Shown: one piece after another, positions 1 through 17,426 of the stretch
Layout of the letters: each line of letters begins with the position of its first letter
How positions within the stretch are numbered: position 1 is the stretch's first letter
DNA from: a virus
Taxonomy: Duplodnaviria > Heunggongvirae > Uroviricota > Caudoviricetes
DNA: 64,000 nucleotides
Direction: 5' to 3' (one strand)
Virus record (IMG/VR): IMGVR_UViG_2879469214_000003
Coordinates: 1 to 64,000 of that record
The notes under the pieces: generated by a model
What the model saw: the letters and a program-made list of their open reading frames with translations, nothing else
The model's database searches: none
Told to the model about the DNA's origin: nothing
Position numbers and translations under genes: made by a program

Positions 1-1299
1 TTACAATTCAATGAATTCTTCAAGCATATAACCAAATTTCTCATATTCACCTTTTTGCAATTCAACTTCATAAATTACATCATTCTCTTCAAAGCTGGTA
101 TCCACCACATCACCAATTTTGTAGAGTATGGACGTTAGATCACCACGTTCTGCCGGAATACGGAAGCGTTTCGTATCACCTGTCAGCTCTGTCTGAATTA
201 ATTCACGGATTTTAAGCAGATCCTCAGAGTCTAATGCGCTTACTTTAATATGGCCTTTATCCAATGGAAGCATTTCAAGTTGCTCTGGTGTACATGCATC
301 TTTTTTGTTATACAGTACTAACTGCGGCTTGTCCCCTGAACCAAGTTCTTGCAAAATCGTGTTAACCGTCCGCATTTGATCTTCACGCATAGCTGATGAG
401 GCGTCCACAACATGCAGGATGAGATCTGCTTCATTCACTTCCTCCAGCGTTGCTCGGAATGCTGCAATTAGATCATGCGGGAGATTTTGAATAAAACCAA
501 CCGTATCGGTAAGTACGATTTCTTTACCACTTGGAAGTTCCATCGTACGTGATGTTGGATCCAGAGTAGCGAATAGCTGATCTTGAATATACACATCTGC
601 AGCCGTCAACTGCTTGAGCAAGGTCGATTTGCCAGCATTGGTATAACCAACAAGGGCCACCTGTACAATACCTGTTTTTTTGCGGCGTTCACGATGTAAC
701 TTGCGATGACGAGTCAATTCTTCCAGATGACGCTTCAGATCATCGATGCGACCACGGATGTGACGACGGTCTGTCTCCAGCTTGCTTTCACCCGGGCCTC
801 TTGTTCCGATTCCGCCCCCGAGTCTGGACAGATTCTTGCCATGACCCGACAAACGTGGCAGCAAATAGCTATGTTGAGCCAATTCCACCTGAATAATACC
901 TTCTCTAGTGTTGGCACGTTGTGCAAAGATGTCCAAAATCAATTGGGTGCGGTCAATAATTTTGAGATCGAGGGTTTCTTCCAGATTACGAACCTGCGCA
1001 CCTGACAATTCCTGATCAAAAATAGCTGTGGTAGCTCCGAGTTCCTCCGCGATTGCACGAAGCTCTTCCACCTTACCTTTACCAATGAACCATTTGGTAT
1101 CCCGTTTTTCCCGGTTCTGAGAAAGTACACTTAGCACTTCCACTCCAGCTGTCTCGGCAAGTTTCACCAGTTCCTCTAAAGAGTACTCAGGATTGATACC
1201 TGTACGTTTTACATCATCCGTAACAAGACTCACCAAGACGGCGCGATCTTTTTTGACCATATCTGTATCATGTGTGCCATTTGTCATGTATATGTTCAC
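1..1299 (-). CDS. hflX: GTPase HflX (host gene)
   Basis: 432 aa. G-domain motifs (LVGYTNAGKSTLL, DTVGF, NKKD) and HflX N-terminal domain. Stop TAA at 1-3. Confidence 0.85.
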   Translation of the reverse strand: MNIYMTNGTHDTDMVKKDRAVLVSLVTDDVKRTGINPEYSLEELVKLAETAGVEVLSVLSQNREKRDTKWFIGKGKVEELRAIAEELGATTAIFDQELSGAQVRNLEETLDLKIIDRTQLILDIFAQRANTREGIIQVELAQHSYLLPRLSGHGKNLSRLGGGIGTRGPGESKLETDRRHIRGRIDDLKRHLEELTRHRKLHRERRKKTGIVQVALVGYTNAGKSTLLKQLTAADVYIQDQLFATLDPTSRTMELPSGKEIVLTDTVGFIQNLPHDLIAAFRATLEEVNEADLILHVVDASSAMREDQMRTVNTILQELGSGDKPQLVLYNKKDACTPEQLEMLPLDKGHIKVSALDSEDLLKIRELIQTELTGDTKRFRIPAERGDLTSILYKIGDVVDTSFEENDVIYEVELQKGEYEKFGYMLEEFIEL

Positions 1300-1406: not shown

Positions 1407-1808
1407 TTACTTTCGCTCAAAGTTCAAATCCTCTGTACGGATTGTCATCAGCTCCAGTTTTCCTGGACTGCCTTCCGAGTATTGTTCCAACAAACGAACC
1501 GCCTGATGCCTGATCGAACGCTCAATGGCATTACGAACGTATCTGGCGTTACTGAACGCATGCAGCGAATCATTTTTTTCCTGAAGCAAATGTTGCTTTA
1601 GCTTGAGTATGGTCTGAGGCATTAGAATATAATCACGCTCTTTGGCCATAATCTCAGAGATTTGAATCAACTGATCAATACTATAGTCTGGAAACTCCAC
1701 TTGAATGGGGAAGCGGGAAGGTAATCCAGGGTTCGTCTGGAGAAAAAAATCAATTTCTTCCGAATACCCGGCAAGAATCAGTATAAACTGATTTTTGTTA
1801 TCTTCCAT
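1407..1808 (-). pseudogene. 3' portion of a spoVK-like AAA+ ATPase gene split by prophage insertion (attR side)
   Basis: 133 aa aligns with the C-terminal half of the SpoVK-like protein at 7903..8925 (ILAGY...GLPSRFPIQ...FSNARYVRN...IRHQAVRL). The frame is open upstream only to a TAG at 1824-1826. The hflX-spoVK neighbourhood resembles the B. subtilis arrangement. Confidence 0.6.
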
Positions 1809-3483
1809 GGACTTGGCGTGAGTCTAGTGAACCCTGTAATTTTACTAGACTCTCATTGTCTGGCAACTCCTTATGGGGGCTGATTTTATAGACTATTTCG
1901 ATTCTCTTATCATCATGCAATACGACACTATCAATGAAATTATAAATCAATCTTCGTTTATCTTCGATAGTTAAATTTGTTTGTATGATCTTTTTGAATT
2001 TTTCAAGTATATTCGCAGCTAACAAAGCGCTATCATCTTGATGTTGACTCATTTTTAAATTTTCACTAATGGCTGATAGCTCTTTATTTAAATCTGAAAT
2101 TTCGATTTCAATTGGCGCTATCTTTAAAGAAAGTTCCTCTTTAGATTTAATTATGCCTTCCGCATACAGATCAATATACCTCTCTTTTAATCTTTCTTTT
2201 TCTTTTAACGACTTGACTAGTATGTCTTTGGATTTATGTAGCTCATCAACTTTTGCTGTATCTGAAACCCTCTCTAGTAACTTATCGACCAGATGTTGAG
2301 GATTATTAACTATTGTTGTGAATTCTCCCCAAACTAAATTATCAATCATATCTACCCGCCAGTTAGCCCCTCTACAGCTCACATTTGGTTTACCCGACTC
2401 AACATTGTACGATTTTGTTGTTTTTCTGGTGCATGTGTAGTACTTTAATAAACCATATTTAGTTTTAGTAGTTGTACCAGAAGAAACCGAAGCTCCACAT
2501 CTTCCACATCTAACTAAGTTCCTCAACAAGTAATCTTGAGTTGGCTTACCCTTATTCTTATGAAACTTCACATTATCATCAAGTACTTTTTGTACTTTTT
2601 CAAAAGTTACTTCATCTATATATTCTGGAACCGAAATCATGGTCCACTCTTCTTTAGGTTTTGATACTTTCTTCTTCTTACCCAATACCTGAATTGTTTC
2701 GGTTTTGCCATAGTAAAATGTTCCTTTATATGCTGGATTTCTTAAAATCCTACTTATTGTAACCTGATACCAGTCCCCACCTTTAGGTGCCGCAAATCTC
2801 TTTGAAGATAATACTCTAGCAATTTCTGAACAAGAGGAGCCCTCTAAAATCATCTTGACCATTAGAAGATATCTTTCTTTCTCTATCGGATTTTCAACTA
2901 AAGTATCCAACTCTTTATCATAAGTATATCCATATATCCGATTCATTCCGGGGATCTTATTGTTAGCTACCATAGCATTGCGTCCACGTTTAGTGTCGGC
3001 CAATATTTTAGCTTTATTGTATTGAGAGATTGAGCCTTGAATGTTGTAATTGAGCATTGACTCTGCATTTCCTTTTTGAAGATCAAACTCAACAAAGTGT
3101 AAATCACACCCTAACTCCCATATTTTATGAGTTACATCTTGCTGAAGATGAAGATGCCTACTAAGTCTGTTGGGGTGTAGGAAGATTACTTTACTACCCA
3201 ATCCTTTACCAAGAAGAAAGAATATGTAGTTCAGCATTGGACGATTAGGATTGTCTCCTGATTCGGCCTCTTCTCGCAACACTATTATCTCGTCTCTATT
3301 GATATCGAATTTCTCTTTGGCCTCATTAACACAAATGTCGATTTGGGTATCTAAAGAATAATTGTCTACTTGGATGTCAGATGACACACGAGTATAAACA
3401 ATAGCCCTGATCTTTCCGATCAAGGCTGAGATTTGAGTTACATTTAGCTTTTGATGATCTCTTAAAACAATCATATACATCAC
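1798..3483 (-). CDS. large serine recombinase (SprA-like prophage integrase)
   Basis: 561 aa. N-terminal resolvase catalytic domain (AIVYTRVSSDIQ), recombinase and zinc-ribbon region (CGRCG...C), C-terminal coiled coil. It sits at the prophage end and its 3' end overlaps the interrupted gene. Confidence 0.85.
   Translation of the reverse strand: MMYMIVLRDHQKLNVTQISALIGKIRAIVYTRVSSDIQVDNYSLDTQIDICVNEAKEKFDINRDEIIVLREEAESGDNPNRPMLNYIFFLLGKGLGSKVIFLHPNRLSRHLHLQQDVTHKIWELGCDLHFVEFDLQKGNAESMLNYNIQGSISQYNKAKILADTKRGRNAMVANNKIPGMNRIYGYTYDKELDTLVENPIEKERYLLMVKMILEGSSCSEIARVLSSKRFAAPKGGDWYQVTISRILRNPAYKGTFYYGKTETIQVLGKKKKVSKPKEEWTMISVPEYIDEVTFEKVQKVLDDNVKFHKNKGKPTQDYLLRNLVRCGRCGASVSSGTTTKTKYGLLKYYTCTRKTTKSYNVESGKPNVSCRGANWRVDMIDNLVWGEFTTIVNNPQHLVDKLLERVSDTAKVDELHKSKDILVKSLKEKERLKERYIDLYAEGIIKSKEELSLKIAPIEIEISDLNKELSAISENLKMSQHQDDSALLAANILEKFKKIIQTNLTIEDKRRLIYNFIDSVVLHDDKRIEIVYKISPHKELPDNESLVKLQGSLDSRQVHGR
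1820..1852. other. perfect 9-bp inverted repeat (GAGTCTAGT-N15-ACTAGACTC) at the prophage/host junction; candidate attR core or recombinase binding site
   Basis: Lies where homology to the spoVK-like paralog ends. The TAG that truncates the host frame sits inside the left arm. Confidence 0.4.
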
Positions 3484-3510
3484 CTTTATATATTATTTTT
3501 GTCTATTTGA

Positions 3511-3690
3511 TTATAACATTTCTGACTTGAGATAACTATTATCATTTGAATACTTATTCAGCATTTCTTCCATCCAGTCCAAAATCACCCCCTCAACATC
3601 TACTACGTTTGTATTCTGTTGCTCATCATTTATAATTTTATTGACTATGGTGTACTCAGCCATTCTTCTTGCGGTTAAACTTTTATTCAT
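3511..3690 (-). CDS. small hypothetical protein (59 aa), translationally coupled to the upstream gene
   Basis: ATG overlaps the TAA of 3683..4255 (ATGAATAA). RBS AGGAGG 7 nt upstream. Below the 60-aa cut-off of the ORF track. Confidence 0.3.
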   Translation of the reverse strand: MNKSLTARRMAEYTIVNKIINDEQQNTNVVDVEGVILDWMEEMLNKYSNDNSYLKSEML

Positions 3691-4255
3691 TTAAAGCCTC
3701 CTGTATCTTCGTATCGTATGTATTAATTGCCTCCATAATAAATTCTTTCAAATGATAGTGCCATCTCGTTCTAGGTTTAAAACCTTTAATCTCAATTCCA
3801 ATCTCCTCACAAATAGCTAGTGAAATACTACTTTTATTTACTTTGCTTCTATATGTATGTTCCTTGATTTGGTTCTGAGCTATGTTTTGATACTTTAGAA
3901 ACGCTTCAATATGTATAAAGAAAACTCTATTTTCTGGTTCTCGGAAGTTCATTATAAATCCCGATATGACACCTTGATATGTATTTGCTTCAGATAGTTT
4001 ATCAATTTGATGTTGCTTGATCACACTTTCCTGAAAACTAATTGACTTATCCTTAGTGGATTTAAGCTCTAGTGTGAACAAATGACTCTCTGCAAACATC
4101 ATACAATCATAATCATTCTTAGTTACCCTCACTCTGTTACGAAGATCTGGTGGAATAAAAGTGTCTTTCAAACGTGTAAAGAAGATCTTTTCTGCTCCTT
4201 GTGTTGCCGACTTCTGAAAATCTTCCTCAAAAACTTTACCAAGATTTGTAGCCAA
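3683..4255 (-). CDS. RecU-like Holliday-junction resolvase / PD-(D/E)xK nuclease
   Basis: 190 aa. LFTLELKSTK and VFFIHIEAF resemble the RecU catalytic D..E.K core. Confidence 0.45.
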   Translation of the reverse strand: MATNLGKVFEEDFQKSATQGAEKIFFTRLKDTFIPPDLRNRVRVTKNDYDCMMFAESHLFTLELKSTKDKSISFQESVIKQHQIDKLSEANTYQGVISGFIMNFREPENRVFFIHIEAFLKYQNIAQNQIKEHTYRSKVNKSSISLAICEEIGIEIKGFKPRTRWHYHLKEFIMEAINTYDTKIQEALNE

Positions 4256-4259
4256 TCAA

Positions 4260-4466
4260 TCATTCCTCTCCTGCAATTAATCGTTTAGCTTCTACTGCTT
4301 TAAACAAACAATCATATGTATCATGCACACAGACTCCATAAACATCTAAAATTTCTTCGCCTACATTTATAGTTTCCTTGCATCCATAACAATTTGAGTA
4401 CTGAATGATGCTCTCTTGTGGATCTGGAAAGTGGATATAGTGATAGTTATTTTCGAATCTATCCAT
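4260..4466 (-). CDS. small zinc-ribbon protein
   Basis: 68 aa with CYGC and a second Cys cluster. Confidence 0.3.
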   Translation of the reverse strand: MDRFENNYHYIHFPDPQESIIQYSNCYGCKETINVGEEILDVYGVCVHDTYDCLFKAVEAKRLIAGEE

Positions 4467-4593
4467 TTAACTTCTCAACTTTTTCATTCAGCAATTGGCT
4501 AAGTACTGTACCAACAACTTCTTTGTATTCGTCTTCAGTCAACTTGCGTTCAATGATTTGTTCAATCTTTGACTTACTAAGCTTGTTTTCCAT

Positions 4594-7500
4594 TTATTCA
4601 TTCTCCTTATCCTTATACTTGTTGTAACCAGTGATCCAAACGTCCGTCTGATCTGTAGATCTGAAGCCACCATTACCATCTGGGACTTGTCTTGGCTTTT
4701 TCTTATGACTTGTTATTTCAATTAAATCTCCTTTTCCAATTTTCAAGGCTTTATCTTTAACGTTAAATGTCTTCTTGTCCATTTTAAACACACGTTCATC
4801 ACCACTGCGAAGATTGTATAGGGTGAGTTTGGGACTATATTTAATATCTAAATCAGTAACTACGCACCAACCCGATTCTATATCAGGAAATATAGCCTCA
4901 GAGTAACCCAGCATTTCCTTCTGGAACATCACTTCTTCATTTGGCATTACTATGGAGTAGTCATTTTCAGTACGAATCCTATTTTCTTCATCAACTAGAT
5001 CCGCAATCCTCTTAAGTTTAGTCTTCTCAACGTATGTTTTTTTATATTGAGACTTCCCACTTGAGAATCCTTTGTACAGCGTCACTAACAAACTATTGTT
5101 ACCAAATTCTCTAAAAAACCCAAGACGAATTAATATATCAGTTTGACGACTGTTGACCGAAGTTTTTTCGTTTAAATCAACCAACAATTCAACGAATGAA
5201 TTATATGTGTTTTTACTTAAAATCAACAACTCTTCTGCAATCTTTTCGTTTAGGTATTTAATAGATTTTAAACCTTTGTAAATTGTTTTATCGCCCTCAT
5301 TAAAGGAGTAATCAGCATTAGACTTACCAAATTTTATTGGTGATACCTCAATGCCTCTTGTTTTAGCATAGTTAATTATTTGACCTGTTTTTTCTATGTT
5401 GTCATTATTTATATTTAACATCACAGTAAGAAAGGCTAGAGGGTAGTAGTGTCTTAGATATCCATTTCCATAGCCGATGTGAGAGTAAGGATTTGAGTGG
5501 TTATCGGAGAATCCATAACGCTGTGCATCATCTATGACCTGTAAGAAAGGCTCTAAGACAGCAAGCGCATCCTCTTCCGTCTCTCCGTAATCCAAATACA
5601 TTTTTTGCACAAAACGCTTTCTTATCTCTGGTAGAAACTTCTCTGTTCCTTCTTTTTTACTCAATCCTCTTCGAACACTATCGCTTTCTGCCATTGAGAA
5701 CTCACAGAACTCAACGAGAAAATTCATGATTTGTTCCTGATAAACTAGGTATCCAATAGTGCTCTTCAGAAAATTATTCAATGCTTCATGACCATGATCT
5801 TTGAATATGCCATTTGCCAAAGCTTGTCTGTATGAGTCTCCTGATGGTCTGATTGCTCCATTTCCAATTGAAAATAACTCAATATAACTAAACATATCGT
5901 TTTGTTCTTCTATCTTATGTATTGTTTCTTCACTTAGTAGATCTTTTAGATATGCTTGGGCTGAATTACTTTCCCATTGGAATATACCTAAACCTGACTC
6001 TCGTATCGAACTCCAGACATCTTTATCGTCAACGTCCATATTGTCTGGTGTAAGCCGTTCAATTCCAGCTAACTTACACGTCTCATTGATAATTTCATTG
6101 TTGTCCAAACCCAAAATATCCAACTTTACATAATTGAGTCCATCGAGTTCCTTCATATTGATCTGACTTACTGGATACTTGCTCTCTTTTGTATAACAAA
6201 GACCAATGTTATCTTCGAGACTTATCGGAGAAACAATGTAGCCAGAAGGATGAGAGCCTATACTTACTATAACTCCTTGCACCAACTCAACATATTTGAA
6301 TAGTTCGGGATACATTTCGAGATACTTTGGTTCTACTCTATCGACCTTCTTATCGTCTTTGTATACTGACTTAGCAATAGCATCTACTATCGCAAGATCC
6401 ATCCCCAAAGCCCTTCCAACTTCTCTAATTGCCCCTTTTAGTGCAACAGTGTTGAAGGTGATAATCTCTGAGAAGTGAATGCCGGGAATTGTTGCTACGT
6501 AATCAATAACATCTTGCCTTTTAGATGGAGGCCAATCCAAGTCAATATCAGCAAGCGAGATACGTTCTGGATTCAAGAATCGGAAAAAATTTAGCTTATG
6601 CTTGATACTATCCATCTCAGTAATTTTCAATAAATACGCAATTAAGCTTCCGTTAACTGATCCACGACCATATCCTTGATAAATATCATTGCTATGCGCC
6701 CAATCGACTACGTCTTTTTGGAGGAGCATATAATCAATAGCTCCAACCTTTTTATATGTATCAAACTCTTCTCTAATTCGTTTAAAGTATGTATCTTTTT
6801 TTACTTTGTCAAACTTATTAATTCCTCTTTCAACTACGCCGACATTTATCCTTTCTTTAAACACTTTTTCTGAGTCGTCGTGCAGCTTAGGATACTTGGG
6901 TGACGAATCAATTGTAAATTCTTCGATACTATCCGCCATAACGTTGGTATTGTGTATAGCTTCAAGGTAGACATTTCTAGGTAAGGCCGATTGCTCCTCA
7001 AACATTTTTACAACTTCGGGATATGTTTTAAATGTAAGATCAAATGCATCTTCGTCTCCATATGTCGCTCCCTTGGCCTTCATTAGAATCTTCCGTGCAT
7101 CAGCATGAGACCTGTTTAAGGCGTGAGTGTCTGTCCCTGCAATAAGCGGTATACCTGTTTCGATTGATAAATTATGTAGGTGTTGGTTGAATAACTTTTG
7201 CTCTGGGTGAGTGTGATATTGAATCTCAAAAAACATTCTATGCTTATTTTTCACAAAGAAGTCCATAAATCTGTTCATCATTTGCTTGTTGTCATTTTTA
7301 ATTGCTCTCCATAACGGAGATGCAAGACAGGCAGATGTCATGATAATATTATCCGAAGTATTGAACAGCTCTTCGAAAGTAATCCTTGGATTATAATAAT
7401 AATGTCCGTCATCTTTATTGTTCGAGAGTGAAGTTAGTTTGTTTAATTCTTGTGCACCTTCAAGATTCTTTGCAATAAGCATGTAATGATAATTGTCACG

Positions 7501-7737
7501 AATCAAACCACTTTCTTTGTCGTTGTGCTCCGTGAGATATATCTCGTTCGCATGAATATACTTCATACCCTTCTCTTCAATTGATTGTTTCTTCTTAACC
7601 CAATTAAATACATTTCCATGCTCAGAGAAACATATTGTCTGCATCTCTGCCTTCTCTGCTTTATCGATGTACTGCTGGTATTTAGTCACAGAGTCTATAG
7701 CCATTGATGTTGATGGATTGCTAGTGTCTGAATGCAA
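4594..7737 (-). CDS. DNA polymerase III alpha-type replicative polymerase (PHP plus polymerase core), YorL-like
   Basis: 1047 aa. N-terminal PHP motif (YHLHSDTSN when the frame is read a few codons upstream of the TTG at 7737). Large polymerase core. Exact start uncertain because there is no ATG. Confidence 0.8.
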   Translation of the reverse strand: MHSDTSNPSTSMAIDSVTKYQQYIDKAEKAEMQTICFSEHGNVFNWVKKKQSIEEKGMKYIHANEIYLTEHNDKESGLIRDNYHYMLIAKNLEGAQELNKLTSLSNNKDDGHYYYNPRITFEELFNTSDNIIMTSACLASPLWRAIKNDNKQMMNRFMDFFVKNKHRMFFEIQYHTHPEQKLFNQHLHNLSIETGIPLIAGTDTHALNRSHADARKILMKAKGATYGDEDAFDLTFKTYPEVVKMFEEQSALPRNVYLEAIHNTNVMADSIEEFTIDSSPKYPKLHDDSEKVFKERINVGVVERGINKFDKVKKDTYFKRIREEFDTYKKVGAIDYMLLQKDVVDWAHSNDIYQGYGRGSVNGSLIAYLLKITEMDSIKHKLNFFRFLNPERISLADIDLDWPPSKRQDVIDYVATIPGIHFSEIITFNTVALKGAIREVGRALGMDLAIVDAIAKSVYKDDKKVDRVEPKYLEMYPELFKYVELVQGVIVSIGSHPSGYIVSPISLEDNIGLCYTKESKYPVSQINMKELDGLNYVKLDILGLDNNEIINETCKLAGIERLTPDNMDVDDKDVWSSIRESGLGIFQWESNSAQAYLKDLLSEETIHKIEEQNDMFSYIELFSIGNGAIRPSGDSYRQALANGIFKDHGHEALNNFLKSTIGYLVYQEQIMNFLVEFCEFSMAESDSVRRGLSKKEGTEKFLPEIRKRFVQKMYLDYGETEEDALAVLEPFLQVIDDAQRYGFSDNHSNPYSHIGYGNGYLRHYYPLAFLTVMLNINNDNIEKTGQIINYAKTRGIEVSPIKFGKSNADYSFNEGDKTIYKGLKSIKYLNEKIAEELLILSKNTYNSFVELLVDLNEKTSVNSRQTDILIRLGFFREFGNNSLLVTLYKGFSSGKSQYKKTYVEKTKLKRIADLVDEENRIRTENDYSIVMPNEEVMFQKEMLGYSEAIFPDIESGWCVVTDLDIKYSPKLTLYNLRSGDERVFKMDKKTFNVKDKALKIGKGDLIEITSHKKKPRQVPDGNGGFRSTDQTDVWITGYNKYKDKENE

Positions 7738-7902
7738 ATGATAAATTACATAGTTATCCGTATGCTCATCTCCTTACTTAAATACTCGATCAAATATTGA
7801 TTTTATATATTATATTAGTCTAATTAGTTCACATTTTAATCACCTCCTTTGCTTTCTCCTATGGGACATTTAACACCATTGCATCCCATAGGAGATTACT
7901 CT

Positions 7903-8925
7903 CTATACCGTATAGATGCCTTCAACTTTCTTTGGCTCATTCAACTGGGAATCTATGTCCCGTGCGGTAATTTCCATCAGACTTTGGCGCGATATATTCT
8001 CACGTCTTTTCATTAGTCGTACAGCTTGATGCCTAATTGCTTTCTCGATCACATTGCGCACATATCTTGCATTGCTAAAGTGAATCCTTAAATTCTTTTC
8101 TTCTTGAATGATCTGTTTAAGTTTTACTCCAGCTTCACTTGTAAAGTTATAATCCTTCTCTGACGACATCTTTAGTGCAATTAGCATTAATTCCTCTGTA
8201 GAATAGTCATCAAAGTTGATCTGAATAGGAAATCTTGAAGGTAACCCTGTGTTAATCTGAAGGAAATCGTCCATCTCTATAGGATAGCCAGCCAGTATGA
8301 TGATTAGATCGTCGCTCTTGTCTTCCATTACTTTTACAAGTGTGTCGATAGCCTCTTTACCAAAGTCTTTTTCTCCTCCACGAGCAAGACTGTAAGCCTC
8401 ATCTATAAACAGTATCCCGCCCATGGCTTTTTTCACAAGCTCACGAGTCTTCAAAGCTGTATGACCAATGTACTCTCCAACTAAGTCAGCACGTTCGACC
8501 TCAATTAAGTGCCCTTTGCTTAATACACCCATCTTGTTGAGCATTTTGGATATTATCCTTGCTACAGTTGTTTTACCAGTGCCGGGGTTACCTTTAAAAA
8601 TCATGTGGTACACTTGCTTGCTGTTCTTCAATCCCACTTCGCTTCGATACTTATTGACCTGAATTAATGAGTAAATTTCATAAATAAGATCCTTAACTTT
8701 ATCAAGCCCGATCATTTCGCCCATCTCATTAAATATGTCTGCTGCGGATTCATTATTGTGATTACTTGTTAATGACTTTTCTTCACTTATCTCTAGAGGT
8801 GCTTTAAGTCCATCATCGGCGTTAAATACAATATTAATCCTTGCATCATTAACAGTAATTCGTCTGACGCTCTCGTCCACAGTCATCACCTCGTTAAGAC
8901 AGTATATGCATCTGTGTTGGGGCAA
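7903..8925 (-). CDS. SpoVK-like AAA+ ATPase (phage-borne intact paralog)
   Basis: 340 aa. Walker A GNPGTGKTTVARI, Walker B ILFIDEAYSL, GLPSRFPIQ, C-terminal FSNARYVRN. Confidence 0.75.
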   Translation of the reverse strand: MPQHRCIYCLNEVMTVDESVRRITVNDARINIVFNADDGLKAPLEISEEKSLTSNHNNESAADIFNEMGEMIGLDKVKDLIYEIYSLIQVNKYRSEVGLKNSKQVYHMIFKGNPGTGKTTVARIISKMLNKMGVLSKGHLIEVERADLVGEYIGHTALKTRELVKKAMGGILFIDEAYSLARGGEKDFGKEAIDTLVKVMEDKSDDLIIILAGYPIEMDDFLQINTGLPSRFPIQINFDDYSTEELMLIALKMSSEKDYNFTSEAGVKLKQIIQEEKNLRIHFSNARYVRNVIEKAIRHQAVRLMKRRENISRQSLMEITARDIDSQLNEPKKVEGIYTV

Positions 8926-8980
8926 AATGCTTATCTGATTTTATTGATTGTAATCTATGTATAGTAGGCCGAAGCCTACA

Positions 8981-9253
8981 TTAGAATGACCCAAATAATT
9001 CTTCCAATTTGTCATCGTATATCTCTGATCTTTCCAAATCTTCTTCTTCGCTCTGTACGGGAAGCTCTATATCTTCATCCAAAAGGAGAGGTGATTCATT
9101 TATGTTAAAACTTGATCCAGTACCAAAAAACAATAGTCTCAGTGCCTTCCTAACTACATCGCTTTTATCTTCGTGAGGAGGCAATCTTTTCCACGCTTCA
9201 ATAAGATCCTCATCTTTGTTTGGTCTAAGTCTTGCTCTAGCCGCTATTTCCAT
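8981..9253 (-). CDS. small acidic protein, possible ParR-like adaptor of the actin-like ATPase
   Basis: 90 aa. Immediately downstream of and overlapping the actin-like gene. Basic N-terminus then an acidic tail. Confidence 0.3.
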   Translation of the reverse strand: MEIAARARLRPNKDEDLIEAWKRLPPHEDKSDVVRKALRLLFFGTGSSFNINESPLLLDEDIELPVQSEEEDLERSEIYDDKLEELFGSF

Positions 9254-10188
9254 GATTTTTTTCCAATCTTGCCATATCCTCTAACTTGGGCAAGTTGATC
9301 CATCAAAACCTTATTTGGAAGATCTAAGTATTCGAAAATAAATCGAGCAGCTCCACCAGCGATTAAATAGATTTCAAAATTGGTATTCAAACTTTCAATT
9401 TCATTTTTGATTTGTCTAGCTAATGATTTAAATGCTTTTTGAATTAGGGGAACTATATTGTGTCCAAAGTAATTACCTGATATAACATAGGGGTCTAACT
9501 CATATATTGCTGGAGTGTGTCCGGTTAGTTTTTGTATGTAAGTTTGTAATAGTGTGTACGCCTTCTCTACCCCCACTAAAACACTTTTGGATTCTTTCAA
9601 AATACTGGATTTGCTGAAACCTAGTAAATTAAGAGTGTAAAATCCCAGATCAACAGTTAGTATCTTTTGTTTGGCTGCTTTTACTTTAGCAATTTTGCCA
9701 TCTTCACCTAATAAATAGTCCATTGTAACACCTAATCCTTGAGGAACTATCTTGCATTCTTCGATAACAGGCTGGACAATGATGTTGCTTCCCCTACCTT
9801 TACGAATCTTATATTCACCCTGATCAGCCAAACCCAAAAGTTTTTGCTCAAATGGAATTTTCTGTTCAAAGTAAAAGTTGATAGGAAGTCCACTTACTAA
9901 TTTCACTTTTTCTTTTTTTGCTAAATACCCCAAAGTTGTCTTCATCACTACTTCACTTGTCTCAGCTTCGGCTTTGTTATTGTTGAGAGAAAAATATTTA
10001 ACATCACTGTATTCTACCGCAGCATTTCCTACAAACAATTCATCGTTGTAAATGAAGTGATCTGATTTTATATTTTGTTCAAATAGGTCTTTTGCTTCCC
10101 CAGCTATTGTTGGTTGACGAAAGAATTTCCCCCCCCTCTCGCCTTTAGTCCATTTAAATCCTAGGTCTAAATTTAATGTGTTATGCAA
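9244..10188 (-). CDS. actin-like ATPase (ParM/Alp family segregation protein)
   Basis: Actin-fold motifs: phosphate-1 LNLDLGFKWTKG, connect LVSGLP, phosphate-2 ILTVDLGFYTLN, adenosine IAGGAARF. The ORF-track ATG at 10290 lies upstream of the predicted -10. The likely start is TTG at 10188 with AAAGGAGG 8 nt upstream. Confidence 0.55.
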   Translation of the reverse strand: MHNTLNLDLGFKWTKGERGGKFFRQPTIAGEAKDLFEQNIKSDHFIYNDELFVGNAAVEYSDVKYFSLNNNKAEAETSEVVMKTTLGYLAKKEKVKLVSGLPINFYFEQKIPFEQKLLGLADQGEYKIRKGRGSNIIVQPVIEECKIVPQGLGVTMDYLLGEDGKIAKVKAAKQKILTVDLGFYTLNLLGFSKSSILKESKSVLVGVEKAYTLLQTYIQKLTGHTPAIYELDPYVISGNYFGHNIVPLIQKAFKSLARQIKNEIESLNTNFEIYLIAGGAARFIFEYLDLPNKVLMDQLAQVRGYGKIGKKSWK

Positions 10189-10280
10189 AATGGTACAACC
10201 TCCTTTTAAGTCGTGTACACAGTTATACCAGATTGAGATATTCTGTTCTATTTGTGTACAGATGTAGCCTCTATAGGATG

Positions 10281-10330
10281 ATTGTACCATCTAATATAAT
10301 GATTGTACAGTATTATTTTTGTGTATTTAA
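10281..10330 (-). promoter_or_regulatory. repeat motif (variant TTAAATACACAAAAATAATAC) plus sigmaA-like promoter TGTACA-17-TACAAT
   Basis: Motif abuts the -35. Reading direction is minus. Upstream of the actin-like gene. Confidence 0.5.
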
Positions 10331-10385
10331 AACTAAATACTCAATTTTTACCTATTGCCTTTCTTCAAGTAAAATTGATGTTTCA

Positions 10386-10877
10386 TCAGGATTTAGCCTT
10401 CAAAAAATGTTGATATCTCAAGGATAATTCAGTCAACCATTCATGATTGTCACAATTTTCGCTGCGTGTGTCCAAAGCAAGGTCAATCATTGAAGATAAT
10501 TGCTCAACAGTTAGATCAACATCATCAATTTCCACATCACAGTAAAAGTTGACAATCTCGTTGTACTTACTTGGGTTAGCTATACCGTTAGACTTGTTTT
10601 CTATGTATAGTTCTAAGTTCACTTTAGCTTCAGGATACTCTTTCTTAATCATGTTGACTGCCTCATGGTATGTAAACTTTCTCAGGTGATCTCCATCAAA
10701 CTGAAAATAGATAATGAAACTATTAAAATGAAGTCTTCTTAATGTGTAGTCGTATGATACTGTTTTTTGATCGAAGATGTATTCCATGTCCAATTTCTTA
10801 TCTTTAAAAGCTGGATAGAATACTCTCAAGTGTTTATCGAAGAGTTTAAACAAATTCTTATCGTTCAGTTTTATCAT
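10386..10877 (-). CDS. hypothetical protein
   Basis: 163 aa ORF with RBS GAAAGGGA-N7-ATG. Confidence 0.4.
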   Translation of the reverse strand: MIKLNDKNLFKLFDKHLRVFYPAFKDKKLDMEYIFDQKTVSYDYTLRRLHFNSFIIYFQFDGDHLRKFTYHEAVNMIKKEYPEAKVNLELYIENKSNGIANPSKYNEIVNFYCDVEIDDVDLTVEQLSSMIDLALDTRSENCDNHEWLTELSLRYQHFLKAKS

Positions 10878-11059
10878 ATGTATTTCCCTTTCTGTTAGTA
10901 GTGATCATTCTCGCTTTGGTAATACTCCAAGTCGTAATTCAATTGCCACTCTACAAGTTTTACTATGTATCTGTCATACTTCTCTTTCTCAATTAATCCC
11001 TCTTCATATTTACTGTTTAAGTAGTTCATATAATTTTGGATCTGAATAATGCATCACCT

Positions 11060-11617
11060 CTATTCTCGGTTTGATCGTAAATCTAGGACTTGTTCCTTCC
11101 TTGTCTTTAGCTCTTCTAAAATTAACTCTTCAGGAATCAAATTGCCGAATCCAACACTATTTTTGGTAAATGGACTGTCAATTCCTACATTGATTTGATT
11201 CACATAATTCGATGGTCTACTATGAATATGTCCATGAATCGAATAAGCATTTGGTGTTAATCCAATTTCAATCGGATAGTGGAAAAGGAATAGATGCTGC
11301 TTATTGATCTTTCTAACAATCATGTTTTCAACTTCTTCGAAGTGATGAGCCATTTTCTTTACTGCGTTAGCATTGTCATGGTTACCAACAGCTAAATGAA
11401 TTTTGCCATTTAGTCTTGGAATGATACTCTCCCATCTAGTGATTCCACCAAATACAAGGTCACCAAGATGATAAACCGTATCATTGCTGCTTACTGTGTT
11501 ATTCCATTGTTCAATTAGGTATTTGTTCATCTCTTCAGTTGTATTGAATGGTCTGTTCTCATGCTGAATGATATTATTATGTGAGAAGTGGCTGTCCGAT
11601 GTATACCAAACTGACAA
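11060..11617 (-). CDS. metallophosphoesterase (YfcE/MJ0936-type)
   Basis: 185 aa. GDLVFGG, GNHD, GHIH motifs. Confidence 0.7.
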   Translation of the reverse strand: MSVWYTSDSHFSHNNIIQHENRPFNTTEEMNKYLIEQWNNTVSSNDTVYHLGDLVFGGITRWESIIPRLNGKIHLAVGNHDNANAVKKMAHHFEEVENMIVRKINKQHLFLFHYPIEIGLTPNAYSIHGHIHSRPSNYVNQINVGIDSPFTKNSVGFGNLIPEELILEELKTRKEQVLDLRSNRE

Positions 11618-11618
11618 T

Positions 11619-12053
11619 TTACTTATCCTCCTTAACCTTTAAAGGCGTGTAACAATCTGAACAAATAATCCATGTACATGTATCTAAGCAATTTGAAAAC
11701 TGATACCACTTAGATGGCACAAAATACTCTTTAGTTGATATGAATTTTGGTGTATCTTCACAGTTCCGACAGTATAAAAAGTCGGTGTTACTGTTTAGTC
11801 TTGCTGATGGTTTATAGCCGTATATGCCTAAGTGCTTATTTACTTTTTTCATCTTTTCTCCGTTAGTACATATATAAATGTTTGATAAGGAATAATCACG
11901 ATGATTGCCCCAATCATGAACCACAACAAGTGACCCCAAGTAAATACCAGCTTGCCTTTTACCACACGTATAAATACAACCAGACTGAAGATTAAACATA
12001 GAGCCAACAAAGCATTGAAAATTATATTTACTATATGAACCTCTCCTTTTCAA
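11619..12053 (-). CDS. Cys-rich hypothetical protein (zinc ribbon)
   Basis: Several CxxC pairs. The real start may be an internal Met. Confidence 0.3.
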   Translation of the reverse strand: MKRRGSYSKYNFQCFVGSMFNLQSGCIYTCGKRQAGIYLGSLVVVHDWGNHRDYSLSNIYICTNGEKMKKVNKHLGIYGYKPSARLNSNTDFLYCRNCEDTPKFISTKEYFVPSKWYQFSNCLDTCTWIICSDCYTPLKVKEDK

Positions 12054-12080
12054 TTCAAATGCATCTTTTACTTAAACATC

Positions 12081-12452
12081 CTATGTATTATTTTTCTTCA
12101 AAATCCGAACCATTAAATCATTGGTAATCTTCAAATCTTCACTGTGTAGTGCATGAATTATATCTAATGCTCTCATCTGTTCAACTGACATTTTACTGTT
12201 TAAGTTAATTGGCTGCATAAACAATAGCTCATACGTAGTAACACCTAATGTATCCGCAATGTTTTCTAATTTACCCATGCGCGGTTCATTCCTACCACTT
12301 TCCCAATAGCCTATGGTAGCACCTGACACACCTAGCTTTTGACCCAACTCTTCCTTCGATAACTCCATTCTTTCACGGAACCTCTTCAAATTACGTGCAA
12401 AATTTAATTCACTCATGTTGAACCTCCTATTTGATTTTCTTAATAATAGCAA
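12081..12452 (-). CDS. XRE-family helix-turn-helix transcriptional regulator
   Basis: HTH LSKEELGQKLGVSGATIGYWESG. The start is probably the internal Met (MSELNF). Confidence 0.6.
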   Translation of the reverse strand: MLLLRKSNRRFNMSELNFARNLKRFRERMELSKEELGQKLGVSGATIGYWESGRNEPRMGKLENIADTLGVTTYELLFMQPINLNSKMSVEQMRALDIIHALHSEDLKITNDLMVRILKKNNT

Positions 12453-12506
12453 TCACTATTACTTTTGATCAAATATAAGTTTCATTTAAACTATGTATTC
12501 TATGTA

Positions 12507-13166
12507 TTAAGTGAATGCTGGTCTTAGTTTCTTTATAGCACACTTATATTGATAATGAGTCGCCTGTCTAGTTTGATTTATCCCTTCACCAATCTCAGTG
12601 ACTCCCATACCATCAAAAAAGAACTTCTTAGCAACGTATCTCTCTTTTTCATTAAGCTTCGTATCTAGTAATTCTTTTAATTGATTATTAAACTCATCTT
12701 CTTCCACCTGATTAAGTTTAGTGTGTTCATCATTGGCTAGAATTTCTGAAATTAATTTATCTGCACCATCGCTCGTTTTACCAATAGGCGTCTCAAGACT
12801 TACGGTTTGAAACGAATTGCGACACTTCATACGCTTGTGACGTTCAGCTTTGACAAATTCCATCCACACAACATTTCCAATATAGGTAGATAGTTTAGTA
12901 TCTTTACTTGTGTCATATGTATCAAAAGCTTTTACTAATCCTATTGATCCTATTCCAACTAAGTCATCCAAGTCGTCTTTGAAACCAAACTCCTTCCACT
13001 TGTGAGCAAGTTTAACTACAATGCGAATATTATTGTTGATTACTTGGTTTCTTAGTTCCTTATCATTTGTCTCTTTCGCGAGTTTGATCATTGCTTCATT
13101 ATCAAAACTTGGATCATAATGTCTCATCATATTATCAAAATTCATTTGTCTCACCTTTTTGTACAC
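12507..13166 (-). CDS. sigma-70 family sigma factor (phage-encoded)
   Basis: Region 2 (DLVGIGSIGLVKAFDTYD) and region 4 HTH (MGVTEIGEGINQTRQATHYQYKCAIKKLR). Confidence 0.7.
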   Translation of the reverse strand: MYKKVRQMNFDNMMRHYDPSFDNEAMIKLAKETNDKELRNQVINNNIRIVVKLAHKWKEFGFKDDLDDLVGIGSIGLVKAFDTYDTSKDTKLSTYIGNVVWMEFVKAERHKRMKCRNSFQTVSLETPIGKTSDGADKLISEILANDEHTKLNQVEEDEFNNQLKELLDTKLNEKERYVAKKFFFDGMGVTEIGEGINQTRQATHYQYKCAIKKLRPAFT

Positions 13167-13398
13167 TATGTTTGATGTACAATCCTTCTTCTGTAATTTC
13201 TAATAAGTTGATCTGCTTACCGTATGCACATGCCCCATCTATACCAATCTTGTCTCCTTTAGGATCGAACCAAATTTCAGCAGAACCGTGTAAATGAATT
13301 GCTGGAGTATGCCCAAAAATTACTTTCTTTTTTAGACTGGTGAAATTGTGATAGAATTGCTCTCTAATCCATATAAAATCAGACTCAGAAGTGTTTTT

Positions 13399-13886
13399 TC
13401 AGTTACTTAACATTGGATTGATTCCTGCATGAACGTATATATGTCTCTCGTCCTCATGACACAGCGACAATACATCAAGAAAATCAATGTGGTGCTGATA
13501 ATGTTTACGTATATACTCTTTTACTTCTATGTATTTATCCCAGTCGAATCCTTCTTCGAAATAATCTCCACCAATGTAGCCAATTAGTGTTGTGAACCCA
13601 CCATTATTAAGCCATTGAGCATCATAGAGCTCATCATCATTTTTTAGTGCTGCTACCATCATGTCATCGTGATTACCTTTTAACGCTACAACATCATGAT
13701 CAAACTTTAGCTTTATAATCTGTTCAATGACTTGCTTACTTTTCATGCCTCTATCTACATAATCTCCGAGTAATATTAATTGATCATTTGTTGAATCATA
13801 TTTGTTTTTATTGAGTATTAAATTAAATTCATCAAGGCATCCATGAATGTCGCTAACAACGAGTTTTCTGATGTTTTGAGCCTCAT
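13399..13886 (-). CDS. Ser/Thr phosphatase-type metallophosphoesterase (PrpE/ApaH-like) with apparent -1 frameshift in an A-run
   Basis: Downstream frame gives KLVVSDIHGC, GDYVDRG, GNHD. It has no ATG. The ATG at 13884-13886 (MRLK) is in another frame and joins if the run at about 13874-13877 had one more base. Confidence 0.5.
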
Positions 13887-13926
13887 TTCCATTGATTTAT
13901 TATATAAATTACATTAAAATTATCAT

Positions 13927-13942
13927 ATTGCAGGGGTGCAAT
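13927..13942. promoter_or_regulatory. palindromic operator-like site ATTGCA-N4-TGCAAT
   Basis: Perfect 6-bp inverted repeat in the divergent AT-rich region, between the sigma-factor operon start and the plus-strand membrane gene. Confidence 0.35.
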
Positions 13943-14096
13943 AGTCGAAGGTTTAATAGGGAGCAGTCATTACCTTAATTGGTGTGACTGCTTTTTTGAT
14001 GAAGCAAGTGTTTTATAAAATTATAAAAATTTTAACTTTATTATGAATCTGATTTCATAGTAGCTACGTATAGATTAATAAAAGGAGTGGTCATAA

Positions 14097-14819
14097 ATGG
14101 AAGAAAAGGTCGGATTGAATTTTTACTCTAATCTAAAAGAAATATTAGATTTTTATGATGAGGAGCTATCAAGCAAAAAACTAATTCCAACAACTAAATT
14201 GGATGCTTTGTACGTATGGACTGCTTTGGCTTTAATTGTAAGTGGGACAACACTCCTTTTTATCAGTCTAGGCAACTTTAAATCTCTTCTTTCAGTTCTC
14301 CTTTCAACTTTGGCAATTGTACTGCTTTTATCCGCTTTGGGTTTGATGCAACTTATAGTCAATTCAAGGGGTAAAACCGTGAAATTATACTTTGGTGATG
14401 GTGAAAAACAGCAGTACTTAACGCTTGAAAATAAAAGATCAAGTAAAAACGAAAATAATATTCTCTTTGCATATCGAACTGATAGAATCGCAAGTAAATT
14501 GAATGAAATGGGAATATATAAAGTCGAACACATTACAGCTATCGCTGAGCACTTAGAGAGCCACAGTCAAAACACTAAAAGTATAAAATGGCTTCCTATC
14601 GGCATTTTTGGATTGTTCTTAATTCCTCTGTGGACAGAATTTGTAGGCAAATACTTAAGCGGCACTTCTTCTGTTATTTTCTTAATCCTATTAGGGTCGG
14701 TACTTGCTACTGTTGTATACTTGCTGAATATTGCTTTCAGGATTATCCTATGGCCTGAAACTGATAAGCAGATAGAGATTGCTACCATCATGAAAATTTT
14801 ATTAACTTCTAGAGTTTAA
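14097..14819 (+). CDS. 4-TM membrane protein (plus-strand insertion, candidate superinfection-exclusion or Abi-type protein)
   Basis: 240 aa. Two hydrophobic hairpins (residues about 40-85 and 165-215). RBS AAAGGAGTG. Opposite strand to its neighbours. Own terminator. Confidence 0.55.
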   Translation: MEEKVGLNFYSNLKEILDFYDEELSSKKLIPTTKLDALYVWTALALIVSGTTLLFISLGNFKSLLSVLLSTLAIVLLLSALGLMQLIVNSRGKTVKLYFGDGEKQQYLTLENKRSSKNENNILFAYRTDRIASKLNEMGIYKVEHITAIAEHLESHSQNTKSIKWLPIGIFGLFLIPLWTEFVGKYLSGTSSVIFLILLGSVLATVVYLLNIAFRIILWPETDKQIEIATIMKILLTSRV

Positions 14820-14830
14820 TCAGATCCAAA

Positions 14831-14855
14831 GAGGGAGAGCCACTCCCTTTTTTTT
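14831..14855. terminator. rho-independent terminator between convergent genes
   Basis: GGGAG-agcca-CTCCC followed by T8. Confidence 0.6.
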
Positions 14856-14862
14856 GATCAAA

Positions 14863-15960: not shown

Positions 15961-16004
15961 TCTTCCTCCTCTATTATTCTGTGTAAAATTAGATTTTCTT
16001 GGAC

Positions 16005-16331: not shown

Positions 16332-16351
16332 TTAATCTCAACCTATATGTA

Positions 16352-16912: not shown

Positions 16913-16966
16913 GTTAACAACTCCTTGTTATATGTAATTTAAATTTTGATAAAAGACGGCTTTTAC

Positions 16967-17254: not shown

Positions 17255-17277
17255 ATGTATTCTTCCTCCTATTGTTC

Positions 17278-17424: not shown

Positions 17425-17426
17425 TA

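Follow-up and report, generated by a model that had tools for sequence, protein, structure and literature searches.

The spoVK gene of Paenibacillus xylanexedens EDO6 is split by a prophage whose precise excision, reconstructed in silico, restores the intact spoVK reading frame. Insertion was the work of a Goe14-type integrase. We consider it somewhat probable that the element is excision-competent, being excised on induction and, most likely, in the mother cell as well. Insertion of a phage into spoVK is an arrangement already known; what is new here is the host and the phage lineage. The stretch of DNA analyzed (64,000 nucleotides, hereafter the window) starts in the EDO6 chromosome and then passes through attR into a temperate phage whose length is at least 126 kb.

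Extent of the prophage

The first gene of the window, hflX (1..1299, minus strand), encodes a ynbA-type GTPase with the Pfam domains GTP-bdg_N, GTP-bdg_M and MMR_HSR1 and adjoins the spoVK fragment, as an earlier note on this DNA had stated. By G+C and gene content, positions 1815..64000 are prophage DNA, representing only the attR-proximal part of the element. G+C drops from ~44% to ~34% near 1.8–2 kb and stays at that low level to position 64000, which bears out the earlier claim that the rest of the window is prophage. The genes of this part serve replication and nucleotide metabolism and include those for polIII alpha, NrdEF, ThyA, DHFR, a RecJ-like and a DnaB-like protein, primase, ligase and a Y-family polymerase. 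A second prophage end was sought in the window and is absent; G+C remains phage-like throughout, and there are no structural genes. Since attL is found on another contig, the prophage must reach at least the end of the contig that carries attR, ~126 kb past attR, and with the junctions on separate contigs it is their orientation and the gene order that indicate colinearity. Gene content is given for about half of the element, on the attR side.

The two parts of spoVK

The host-derived 3' part of spoVK lies at 1407..1814 (minus strand), where the called ORF (1407..1808; EDO6_02350) encodes 133 aa. Its sole Pfam match is the AAA lid domain PF17866, and it shows 100% identity to the last 133 residues of the intact SpoVK of P. 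amylolyticus PAE5 and five other genomes, so that its earlier assignment as the C-terminal part of SpoVK stands. The alignment reported for this ORF, from its first residue (MED..), to the phage paralog at 7903..8925 (minus strand) was also recovered (paralog residues 200-325, 51% identity, E 7e-40). Translated in frame, the sequence upstream reads *THAKSMED, the TAG at 1824-1826 cutting the frame as had been described, and host sequence starts at the AAG Lys codon at 1812-1814. An intact 323-aa spoVK, with the 133-aa ORF sequence as its 3' part, was found directly upstream of hflX in 79 of 80 Paenibacillus species genomes; lysogens at the spoVK site make up one of these 80 species-representative genomes.

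The missing 5' part of the gene (189 codons) is present on another contig of EDO6 (P0329 = RPK28772.1 = EDO6_04299, P. xylanexedens). It encodes SpoVK residues 1-189 followed by TGV and a stop codon, and it is preceded by mutS-mutL-miaA-hfq-DUF402, in the conserved order, and followed by phage lysis and tail genes. The earlier note had proposed to look for just such a fragment, together with attL, at the other prophage end. P0329 was absent from the top short matches of a search with the N-terminal 189 aa of SpoVK and was recovered by listing cluster members. Three of the top short matches (P0121, P0123 and P0150) proved to be frameshifted fragments and not junctions, and a search with the upstream DUF402 protein led to a representative that was not identical. 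The split point (..AIDTLVK|SMED..) has Walker B on one side and the sensor-1 'GY' motif on the other, and neither half is able to encode an active AAA+ ATPase. No secondary damage was found in either half.

More than 100 short SpoVK C-terminal proteins, of about 130-145 aa, came up in a protein search; the list is biased to short targets and gives no estimate of frequency. At first glance they might point to a stand-alone gene family, with the 133-aa ORF as an independent short lid-domain gene. This reading, and with it the view that the junction is an assembly artefact, is already refuted and retains practically no credence: the sequence sits inside an intact 323-aa gene in the 79 relatives, the matching 5' fragment occurs in the same strain, and the attR junction is also present in an independent Logan assembly of run SRR8443429, with equivalent junctions in other strains. 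Moreover, of three short homologs read together with their neighborhood, two lie beside an integrase of the same family; the third, from Pelosinus, does not.

Attachment sites and reconstruction of excision

Alignment of both junctions, as had been advised, showed a shared core of 3 bp, AAG, which the comparison of attB, attL and attR places at 1812..1814 (minus strand) in attR. The sites read ..CTTGTA AAG TCC/TCT ATGG.. (attB), ..CACGCC AAG TCCATGG.. (attR) and ..CTTGTA AAG ACGGGGG.. (attL). AAG comprises the only bases common to attP and attB, and crossover falls within it. The predicted attB in EDO6 is ..ACGCTTGTAAAGTCCATGGAAG.. and the predicted attP is ..CTCACGCCAAGACGGGGGTTTAG... Both att cores are undamaged. 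When attL and attR were joined in silico at AAG, a 323-aa SpoVK was obtained that matches P. amylolyticus PAE5 in 322 of 323 residues, in agreement with the earlier expectation that excision would restore spoVK. The same joining gave the full 687-aa integrase. Sigma-70 promoter and terminator scans of the two junction regions yielded nothing above shuffled expectation.

The inverted repeat at 1820-1828/1844-1852, once taken to mark the junction, is indeed perfect over 9 bp and reaches 12 nt at 92% when extended, but it lies wholly in the phage arm, within the integrase coding sequence and off-center from the crossover, and it is not conserved in related phages. Since the 64-kb window holds 85 inverted repeats of that kind (~1 per 750 bp), one at no more than 40 bp from the junction is no more than expected by chance. 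Being off-center, non-conserved and not rarer than chance, the repeat was ruled out as an att dyad.

The integrase and its severed C-terminus

The large serine integrase is encoded at 1798..3483 (minus strand) in a truncated prophage form of 561 aa with Resolvase, Recombinase and Zn_ribbon_recom domains (PF00239, PF07508 and PF13408, all above cut-offs). The gene reads across the junction, as the earlier note had recognized, and its last four codons and stop are host sequence. The host-derived part spans 1798-1814 and not 1798-1819 as then given; it consists of the core AAG at 1812-1814, followed by codons for VHGR and the stop. Nor does the gene start 10 bp away from the spoVK fragment: it is its 3' end that lies at the junction, overlapping the fragment by 11 bp. 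The best five phage matches of the integrase (Goe14, SPR, SPbetaL2, BUCT082 and BUCT083) show 42% identity at 95% coverage, and those that follow show at most 27%. Reconstructed to 687 aa, the protein can be aligned end to end, C-terminal extension included, with the 693-aa integrase of Goe14 (690 columns, 37.5%; residues 4-680 versus 1-679). Crossover occurs here after residue 557; the annotated Goe14 attP AAG is at codon ~559 of 693. On sequence comparison, the integrase is orthologous to that of Goe14 rather than to SprA.

Because the integrase gene holds attP within its 3' coding region, the protein loses ~126 C-terminal residues on integration. The severed residues persist as a 93-aa ORF at attL, homologous to the C-terminal extension of the Goe14 integrase; this ORF shares its strand with the spoVK 5' fragment and lies directly 3' of that fragment and its promoter. 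Terminator prediction found none between the stop codon of the fragment and this remnant, and Pfam scans of the C-terminal extension gave only sub-threshold helix-turn-helix hints. The severed domain, placed behind the host spoVK promoter, could serve as a sporulation-timed directionality switch. Directly upstream of the integrase gene, a conserved 59-aa ORF (3511..3690, minus strand) is a candidate accessory factor. It has no Pfam family and shows 38-42% identity to counterparts in related Paenibacillus phages and weak similarity (25%) to Goe14_01730, at the equivalent position. It is preceded by a RecU-like gene (3683..4255, minus strand; Pfam RecU) with 52% identity to Goe14 124732-125247, syntenic with the Goe14 gene that precedes the integrase region.

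A phage-encoded SpoVK paralog

The prophage carries an intact SpoVK paralog of 327 aa (7903..8886, minus strand), with an ATG at 8886 and a longest ORF from a TTG at 8925. It contains the AAA and AAA_lid_6 domains and is 60% identical to intact host SpoVK. Compared with the SpoVK family features described in PMC11513918, it retains both Walker motifs (A and B), the GY motif and the Arg-finger region, together with an N-terminal stretch of INIVxN type. Its N-terminal ~40 residues are unlike those of the host protein. The paralog was present in every related Paenibacillus prophage examined and absent from Bacillus SPbeta-like phages.

Upstream of the paralog lies a promoter-like motif, GCATTTT-N15-CATATACT (8901..8930, minus strand), which is the sole strict match in the window, although a match in a single window is not above chance. 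Across 12 diverged phages, both boxes of the motif GCAT(T/G)T(T/C)-N15-CATATACT and the 15-nt spacing are kept and the spacer sequence is variable. The motif makes a poor sigma-70 promoter, and we take it to resemble the sigmaE-type promoter consensus. As the only sigmaE-like motif of the window, it precedes the paralog and not the integrase gene. With an intact SpoVK paralog carried by the phage itself, the host gene might not need to be restored.

These features suggest another account, in which the prophage stays in place at sporulation, the paralog supplies or modifies SpoVK from a sporulation-type promoter of its own, and excision serves lytic growth only. The intactness of the paralog, its identity to host SpoVK with the key motifs kept, its presence in all Paenibacillus prophages of the group examined and the fixed spacing of the sigmaE-like motif all fit this account, yet Goe14-type Bacillus phages and an Alicyclobacillus mini-element use the same site without a paralog, the N-terminal ~40 residues differ from host SpoVK, and the promoter assignment is one of consensus resemblance. 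At one locus (L010), moreover, the paralog accompanies a different integrase, and neither a spoVK 3' fragment nor hflX occurs in the 10 kb read downstream. L010 appears to be located elsewhere than spoVK, so that the paralog and the spoVK site are not strictly coupled. On balance, we regard this account as possible but rather unlikely. We give slightly less weight still, and call it unlikely, to the broader claim that the phage takes over SpoVK function with an intact paralog behind a sigmaE-like motif and excision optional. If it were true, spore-cortex assembly in the lysogen, in which SpoVK activates MurG and acts in a checkpoint, would use a phage-encoded chaperone.

Recurrent use of the spoVK site

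The same architecture was found in at least 11 other Paenibacillus lysogens and also in Bacillus attL loci. In IMG/VR, attL of the Paenibacillus prophages was not found with an N-terminal SpoVK peptide, a degenerate DNA pattern or an alignment of the integrase remnant; the matches were phage paralogs and Bacillus Goe14-type attL loci only, and the Paenibacillus viral contigs there seem to lack attL. In Alicyclobacillus fastidiosus, a 3.1-kb mini-element occupies the same spoVK site with an integrase 38% identical to that of EDO6 and the core GTCAA, and it has no recognizable phage structural or replication genes. Of the two assemblies read, one has the integrase ORF intact and the other has it called as two pieces; the intact copy hints that excision has been kept. 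Altogether, the spoVK site has been used repeatedly, in Bacillus, Paenibacillus, Alicyclobacillus and Fodinisporobacter.

This distribution bears on the view that the prophage simply inactivates spoVK, with spore maturation impaired or SpoVK dispensable, and is excised only on induction and under no developmental control. The sequence holds no demonstration of developmental control, no SprB-like gene was recognized in the approximately half of the prophage read (without a SprB query), and the single lysogen among the 80 species genomes is compatible with a costly insertion. We nevertheless consider simple inactivation improbable. The site is reused in all four genera, an element without recognizable phage structural or replication genes keeps its integrase, intact in one of two assemblies, and the spoVK halves are free of secondary damage. 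In B. subtilis, where SpoVK acts in the mother cell, spoVK mutants show sporulation defects (PMC11513918).

Proposed excision of the prophage

The phage was inserted into spoVK by its Goe14-orthologous large serine integrase, recombining at AAG, and reversal at AAG yields, in silico, full SpoVK and full 687-aa integrase. In the reading that we favor, the element would be excision-competent and would leave the chromosome on prophage induction. Most likely it would also be excised in the terminally differentiated mother cell at sporulation, by analogy with SPbeta in spsM and skin in sigK. Excision there would let SpoVK be made when needed and would not cure the germ line. Candidates for control of direction are the truncation of the integrase, the conserved 59-aa ORF and the severed C-terminal ORF, which the spoVK promoter would presumably serve. 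It is from this analogy that mother-cell-specific excision is predicted; in the literature it is unreported for any spoVK element. No directionality factor or recombinase gene under sigmaE or sigmaK control was recognized in the half of the prophage that was read.

With these findings, the spoVK integration system published for the B. subtilis group now also takes in Paenibacillus. Together with the Alicyclobacillus and Fodinisporobacter loci, they show that one integrase family has kept to the same Lys codon, within a conserved AAA+ motif, in distant spore-formers. P. xylanexedens EDO6 offers a natural system for two questions raised by Goe14, whether spoVK is rebuilt at sporulation and whether truncation of the integrase sets the direction of recombination, and the phage SpoVK paralog adds a testable alternative, gene replacement versus restoration.

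Comparison with known systems

The closest parallel is Goe14, which integrates in B. subtilis spoVK at an AAG within its own integrase gene and thereby truncates that gene (Kohm et al. 2021, bioRxiv 10.1101/2021.11.22.469490); re-establishment of spoVK during sporulation was left there as still to be investigated. The EDO6 prophage shares with Goe14 and with the spoVK prophage of B. subtilis BS155 the target gene and the AAG Lys codon of ..LVK... As in Goe14, the integrase gene contains attP in its 3' coding part, at an equivalent residue (~557-559); integration cuts off ~126-131 C-terminal integrase residues that are left as a small ORF at attL; and the integrase gene has a small ORF and a RecU-like gene ahead of it. 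The two differ in that the host here is Paenibacillus, of a different family (Paenibacillaceae), and in that a SpoVK paralog is present in the Paenibacillus phage but missing from Goe14-type phages. Fifteen genes of the window match Goe14 (16 ORF rows, one being an antisense duplicate), all collinear and at the protein level only, with 24-52% identity. No match to Goe14 yonO, aimR/aimP or yopR was found within the 62 kb of prophage in the window, and the closest counterparts of its polIII alpha are those of 160-kb Bacillus siphophages. Kohm et al. took 70-95% average nucleotide identity as 'same genus' (bioRxiv 10.1101/2021.11.22.469490). The label SPbeta-like, used in the earlier note, holds only loosely, for the shared integrase, the RecU-like gene and the ~15 collinear proteins; judged from its proteins, the EDO6 prophage is not in the genus Spbetavirus.

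SPbeta is a large active prophage that splits a mother-cell sporulation gene, spsM, much as the EDO6 prophage splits spoVK, and both encode a large serine integrase at the prophage end. Precise excision rebuilds spsM, and developmental excision has been demonstrated for SPbeta with SprA and SprB (Abe et al. 2014, PMC4191935; Abe et al. 2017, PMC5499854), whereas EDO6 spoVK has been rebuilt in silico only. SprA and its family belong to another type of integrase (Kohm et al., bioRxiv 10.1101/2021.11.22.469490). The attP of SPbeta is 16 bp and lies outside the integrase coding sequence; that of the EDO6 prophage lies inside it. Direction in SPbeta is set by SprB, made from a sporulation promoter, and no SprB equivalent was recognized in the EDO6 prophage by a reading that used no SprB query. 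Skin in sigK (with SpoIVCA), vfbin in spoVFB, vrin in spoVR and gin in gerE likewise interrupt sporulation genes and encode serine recombinases (Abe et al., PMC5595907). In contrast to these degenerate or non-phage elements of a few kb to 48 kb (PMC5595907), the EDO6 element is a prophage of large size, whose one end holds a full replication module and whose other end holds lysis genes. It is the 3.1-kb Alicyclobacillus spoVK element that looks like the reduced skin/vfbin/vrin/gin class.

Prophage insertion splits spoVK

The window opens with the host hflX gene (1..1299, minus strand), beside which lies an ORF of 133 residues (1407..1808, minus strand) whose sole domain match is an AAA lid domain. 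From its first residue this ORF aligns with residues 200-325 of the intact SpoVK-like paralog encoded by the phage at 7903..8925, minus strand (51% identity, E 7e-40), and the in-frame sequence 5' of it is *THAKSMED, whose stop codon occupies 1824-1826. The earlier note had taken it for the C-terminal part of spoVK, which these features bear out. A large serine recombinase of 561 aa, the prophage form of the integrase (1798..3483, minus strand; three large-serine-recombinase domains), was said to start at the junction; instead, its 3' end sits there and overlaps the spoVK fragment by 11 bp. Its last codons are host sequence as proposed, but over 1798-1814 only, not as far as 1819. The G+C content falls from ~44% to ~34% at 1.8-2 kb and stays low to the window end, and genes for phage replication and nucleotide metabolism occupy the remainder, in keeping with a prophage beyond the junction. 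The 133-aa ORF is RPK31723.1 (EDO6_02350) on Paenibacillus xylanexedens contig RPHH01000001.1 (2.79 Mb; assembly GCA_003833245.1). Since window position 1 is record position 2,659,494, this contig extends ~126 kb beyond the junction. The same 20 kb is present at 100% identity in the Logan assembly of run SRR8443429. A sigma-70-like sequence (TTGCCA-16-TAAAAT, 1839..1866, minus strand), a consensus match only and not above shuffled expectation, is directed out of the prophage end toward the spoVK 3' fragment and hflX, and might sustain hflX expression after insertion.

Relatives were scanned with a single genome for each species, which gave 80 Paenibacillus loci. Of these, 79 have an intact spoVK immediately 5' of hflX, with the 133-aa sequence at its 3' end; in the remaining locus (L063) spoVK is interrupted by a related prophage. 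The intact gene of P. amylolyticus PAE5 has 323 codons, the last 133 of which encode the same residues as the window ORF. The possibility that the ORF is an independent gene was therefore rejected. Host gene order is conserved as mutS-mutL-miaA-hfq-..-DUF402-spoVK-hflX-ynbB-glnR-glnA, an arrangement also seen around spoVK of B. subtilis.

The other prophage end is absent from the 64-kb window. The 5' spoVK fragment, on whose existence the earlier note had made its reading depend, was found in the same strain on another contig (1.36 Mb), and in Logan run SRR8443429 on contig 28. This protein, P0329 (192 aa, RPK28772.1, EDO6_04299, P. xylanexedens, among the protein-cluster members listed), ends with TGV and a stop codon after SpoVK residues 1-189. 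Upstream lie mutS, mutL, miaA, hfq, a large gene without a Pfam match on record (in L125, another Paenibacillus lysogen, a penicillin-binding protein is encoded there) and DUF402. On the downstream side a 93-aa ORF comes first, then genes for an Amidase_2 endolysin and a holin, and last those for possible tail fibres, proteins with CBM96 and SPRY domains. Because the two junctions sit on different contigs, their colinearity is deduced from orientation and gene order; with attL on the second contig, the rest of the first contig (126 kb) is therefore prophage.

Attachment sites and in silico excision

When both junctions were aligned, attB read ..GATACGCTTGTA AAG TC(C/T) ATGGAAGAT.., attR (window minus strand) ..GACTCACGCC AAG TCCATGGAAGAT.. 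and attL ..GATACGCTTGTA AAG ACGGGGGTTTAGACC.., so that only AAG, the Lys codon of ..AIDTLVK/SMED.., is common to the sites. The two sites of an Alicyclobacillus element share GTCAA, and we infer that AA is the crossover dinucleotide because these are the sole bases common to all cases. Joining attL-left to attR-right in silico gave a 323-aa SpoVK identical to the PAE5 protein at 322/323 residues, and the reciprocal joint gave an open 687-aa integrase. Of the features described for SpoVK (PMC11513918), Walker B (ILFIDEAY) and the sensor-1 GY motif flank the split, and neither half is capable of ATPase activity.

The inverted repeat that the earlier note placed at the junction, GAGTCTAGT (1820-1828) and ACTAGACTC (1844-1852), does pair perfectly and can be extended to 12 nt at 92%. 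However, it lies 6-40 bp from the crossover, entirely in the phage arm and inside integrase codons ..ESLVKLQGSLDS.., and is not conserved in related attR sites, and the window contains 85 repeats of this kind; it was thus rejected as an att dyad. Within the paralog, a near-copy of the host attB occurs at 8318..8352 (minus strand), reading GCTATCGACACACTTGTA AAA GTA ATGGAAGA as against GCTATTGATACGCTTGTA AAG TCC ATGGAAGA. The left arm and AA are retained, while the right arm differs right after the core and again past ATGGAAGA; this may represent an internal pseudo-att site of the prophage.

The integrase and kinship of the phage

Among 50,697 phage records, the best five integrase matches were Goe14 (Bacillus phage vB_BsuS-Goe14), SPR, SPbetaL2, BUCT082 and BUCT083 (42% identity over 95% of the protein), all others being at most 27% identical. 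The Goe14 integrase has 693 aa with the annotated attachment site AAG at codon ~559; the crossover in the window phage follows integrase residue 557. The reconstructed 687-aa integrase could be aligned with that of Goe14 over 690 columns at 37.5%, C-terminal extension included, and this extension is also recognisable at the attL of L125. Goe14 and the prophage of B. subtilis BS155 integrate in spoVK at the AAG Lys codon, with attP within the integrase coding region, so that integration costs the integrase 131 residues and leaves a 97-aa ORF (Kohm et al., bioRxiv 10.1101/2021.11.22.469490). The same authors report no sprB equivalent, suggest integrase truncation as a possible direction control, and state that spoVK re-establishment in sporulation is still to be investigated. 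Our literature search found no report of this arrangement in Paenibacillus and no later test of spoVK re-establishment during sporulation. Together, these data show integration by a Goe14-type integrase at AAG, with spoVK disrupted, the integrase truncated and the junctions intact and reversible. The finding of the earlier note is real and its structural interpretation correct; of this structural account we are nearly certain.

The label 'SPbeta-like' stands in part. Fifteen window genes have Goe14 homologs at 24-52% protein identity (the match list has 16 ORF rows, one being an antisense ORF within the ligase gene that was not counted). They are roughly collinear, and include genes for the integrase, RecU-like, ParM-like, DHFR, ThyA, NrdE/F, YorK-like, primase, ligase, a 404-aa protein and a Y-family polymerase. 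The polIII alpha gene adjoining the integration module (4594..7737, minus strand) best matches 160-kb Bacillus siphophages (PK-3, FADO, PJN02), not SPbeta. Its identity among related Paenibacillus prophages (L004-L028) is 97%, 84%, 80%, 32% and 22%, a spread indicating that the module has been exchanged between otherwise related prophages. The phage is related to SPbeta distantly, in its architecture, and shares the integration module; it is not a Spbetavirus.

A LexA-box-like GAACAGACGTTC and a second copy of GCATATACTGT(A) lie at ~48250..48350, where the Y-family polymerase gene (46949..48292, minus strand) and a plus-strand ORF (48349..48846) diverge. On the host side, two tyrosine-integrase fragments are found just 3' of glnA in one locus (L001, 15170..16353) and an intact 334-aa integrase at the same place in another (L005); glnA is another integration locus of SPbeta-like phages (Kohm et al.).

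Possible sporulation-coupled excision and the phage paralog

The prophage would excise when induced and, most likely, in mother cells too; we put the chance that excision is coupled to sporulation at about even. At attL, the severed integrase C-terminus is the 93-aa ORF, with helix-turn-helix hints below threshold. As it is on the same strand directly 3' of the spoVK 5' fragment, with no terminator predicted between them, transcription from the sporulation-specific spoVK promoter is possible. Speculatively, a C-terminus read from this promoter would time the directionality switch in a simple way. A conserved 59-aa ORF (3511..3690, minus strand) just upstream of the integrase, between it and the RecU-like gene, could be an accessory or directionality factor; Goe14_01730 is weakly similar and equivalently placed.

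Alternatively, if mother cells produce the phage paralog (327 aa, counted from the ATG at 8886), a lysogen may have no need to rebuild host spoVK. The paralog is 60% identical to host SpoVK, has all ATPase motifs and was found in every examined Paenibacillus prophage of this group. About 10 nt before its ribosome-binding site lies GCAT(T/G)T(T/C)-N15-CATATACT (GCATTTT-N15-CATATACT in the window; paralog and motif, 7903..8930, minus strand), both boxes and spacing being kept in 12 diverged phages with a variable spacer sequence. It is a poor sigma-70 promoter, and resembles the sigmaE consensus (kmATATT / CATACAnT) and TAATATT-N14-AATACATT upstream of host spoVK. No other strict match occurs in the window, and since shuffled sequence also gives about one, its conservation, not its count, is the evidence. 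However, insertions at the same spoVK site occur without a paralog in Bacillus, whose SPbeta-like phages lack it, and in Alicyclobacillus, and one relative (L010) carries the paralog with a different integrase. A 2025 paper on phage G states that its authors found a spoVK homolog in no other phage (PMC12484599). At the attL of L125 (10001..11998, Logan ERR1343434_38), a spoVK 5' fragment ending ..LVKAMV* is followed by a 125-aa integrase remnant and then directly by a 327-aa paralog, whose place is thus beside attL, versus 6 kb from attR in the window phage.

Other elements in spoVK

One species-representative genome (L063), one Logan contig (L005) and eight IMG/VR prophage contigs (101-218 kb; L012 (= L004), L009, L016-L020, L028) have the same gene order as the window, paralog - polIII - (RecU) - integrase - spoVK 3' fragment - hflX, with integrases 48-67% identical to that of the window. 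Bacillus Goe14-type attL loci were also retrieved. In Fodinisporobacter ferrooxydans (L138, CP089291.1), a 596-aa serine recombinase adjoins a SpoVK C-terminal fragment. This fragment and one from Pelosinus sp. (L139; ORF called from MVKAMED) are cut at or just 5' of the same MED motif; with no integrase or recombinase within 6 kb, the Pelosinus locus may be a decayed or rearranged site.

In Alicyclobacillus fastidiosus (L137 2283..6402, CP104067.1; also L136), a mini-element of ~3.1 kb splits spoVK at the same codon. Besides an NlpC/P60 gene and a 66-aa ORF, it carries an integrase of 565 aa (38% identity to that of the window), whose frame likewise runs into host sequence; of the two assemblies consulted, one has this integrase intact and the other calls it as two pieces. 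No report of such an element in Alicyclobacillus was found in our literature search. The mini-elements and the paralog most deserve follow-up.

The arrangement described here has already been published for Bacillus, and is now extended to a further host family and to a phage of a distant lineage. The Alicyclobacillus mini-element, in which phage genes for structure or replication are absent, resembles an intervening element of the skin or gin type. The absence of those genes, together with a retained integrase that is intact in one of two assemblies, is in our view the best indirect argument that selection maintains excision at spoVK, as in skin, vfbin, vrin and gin.
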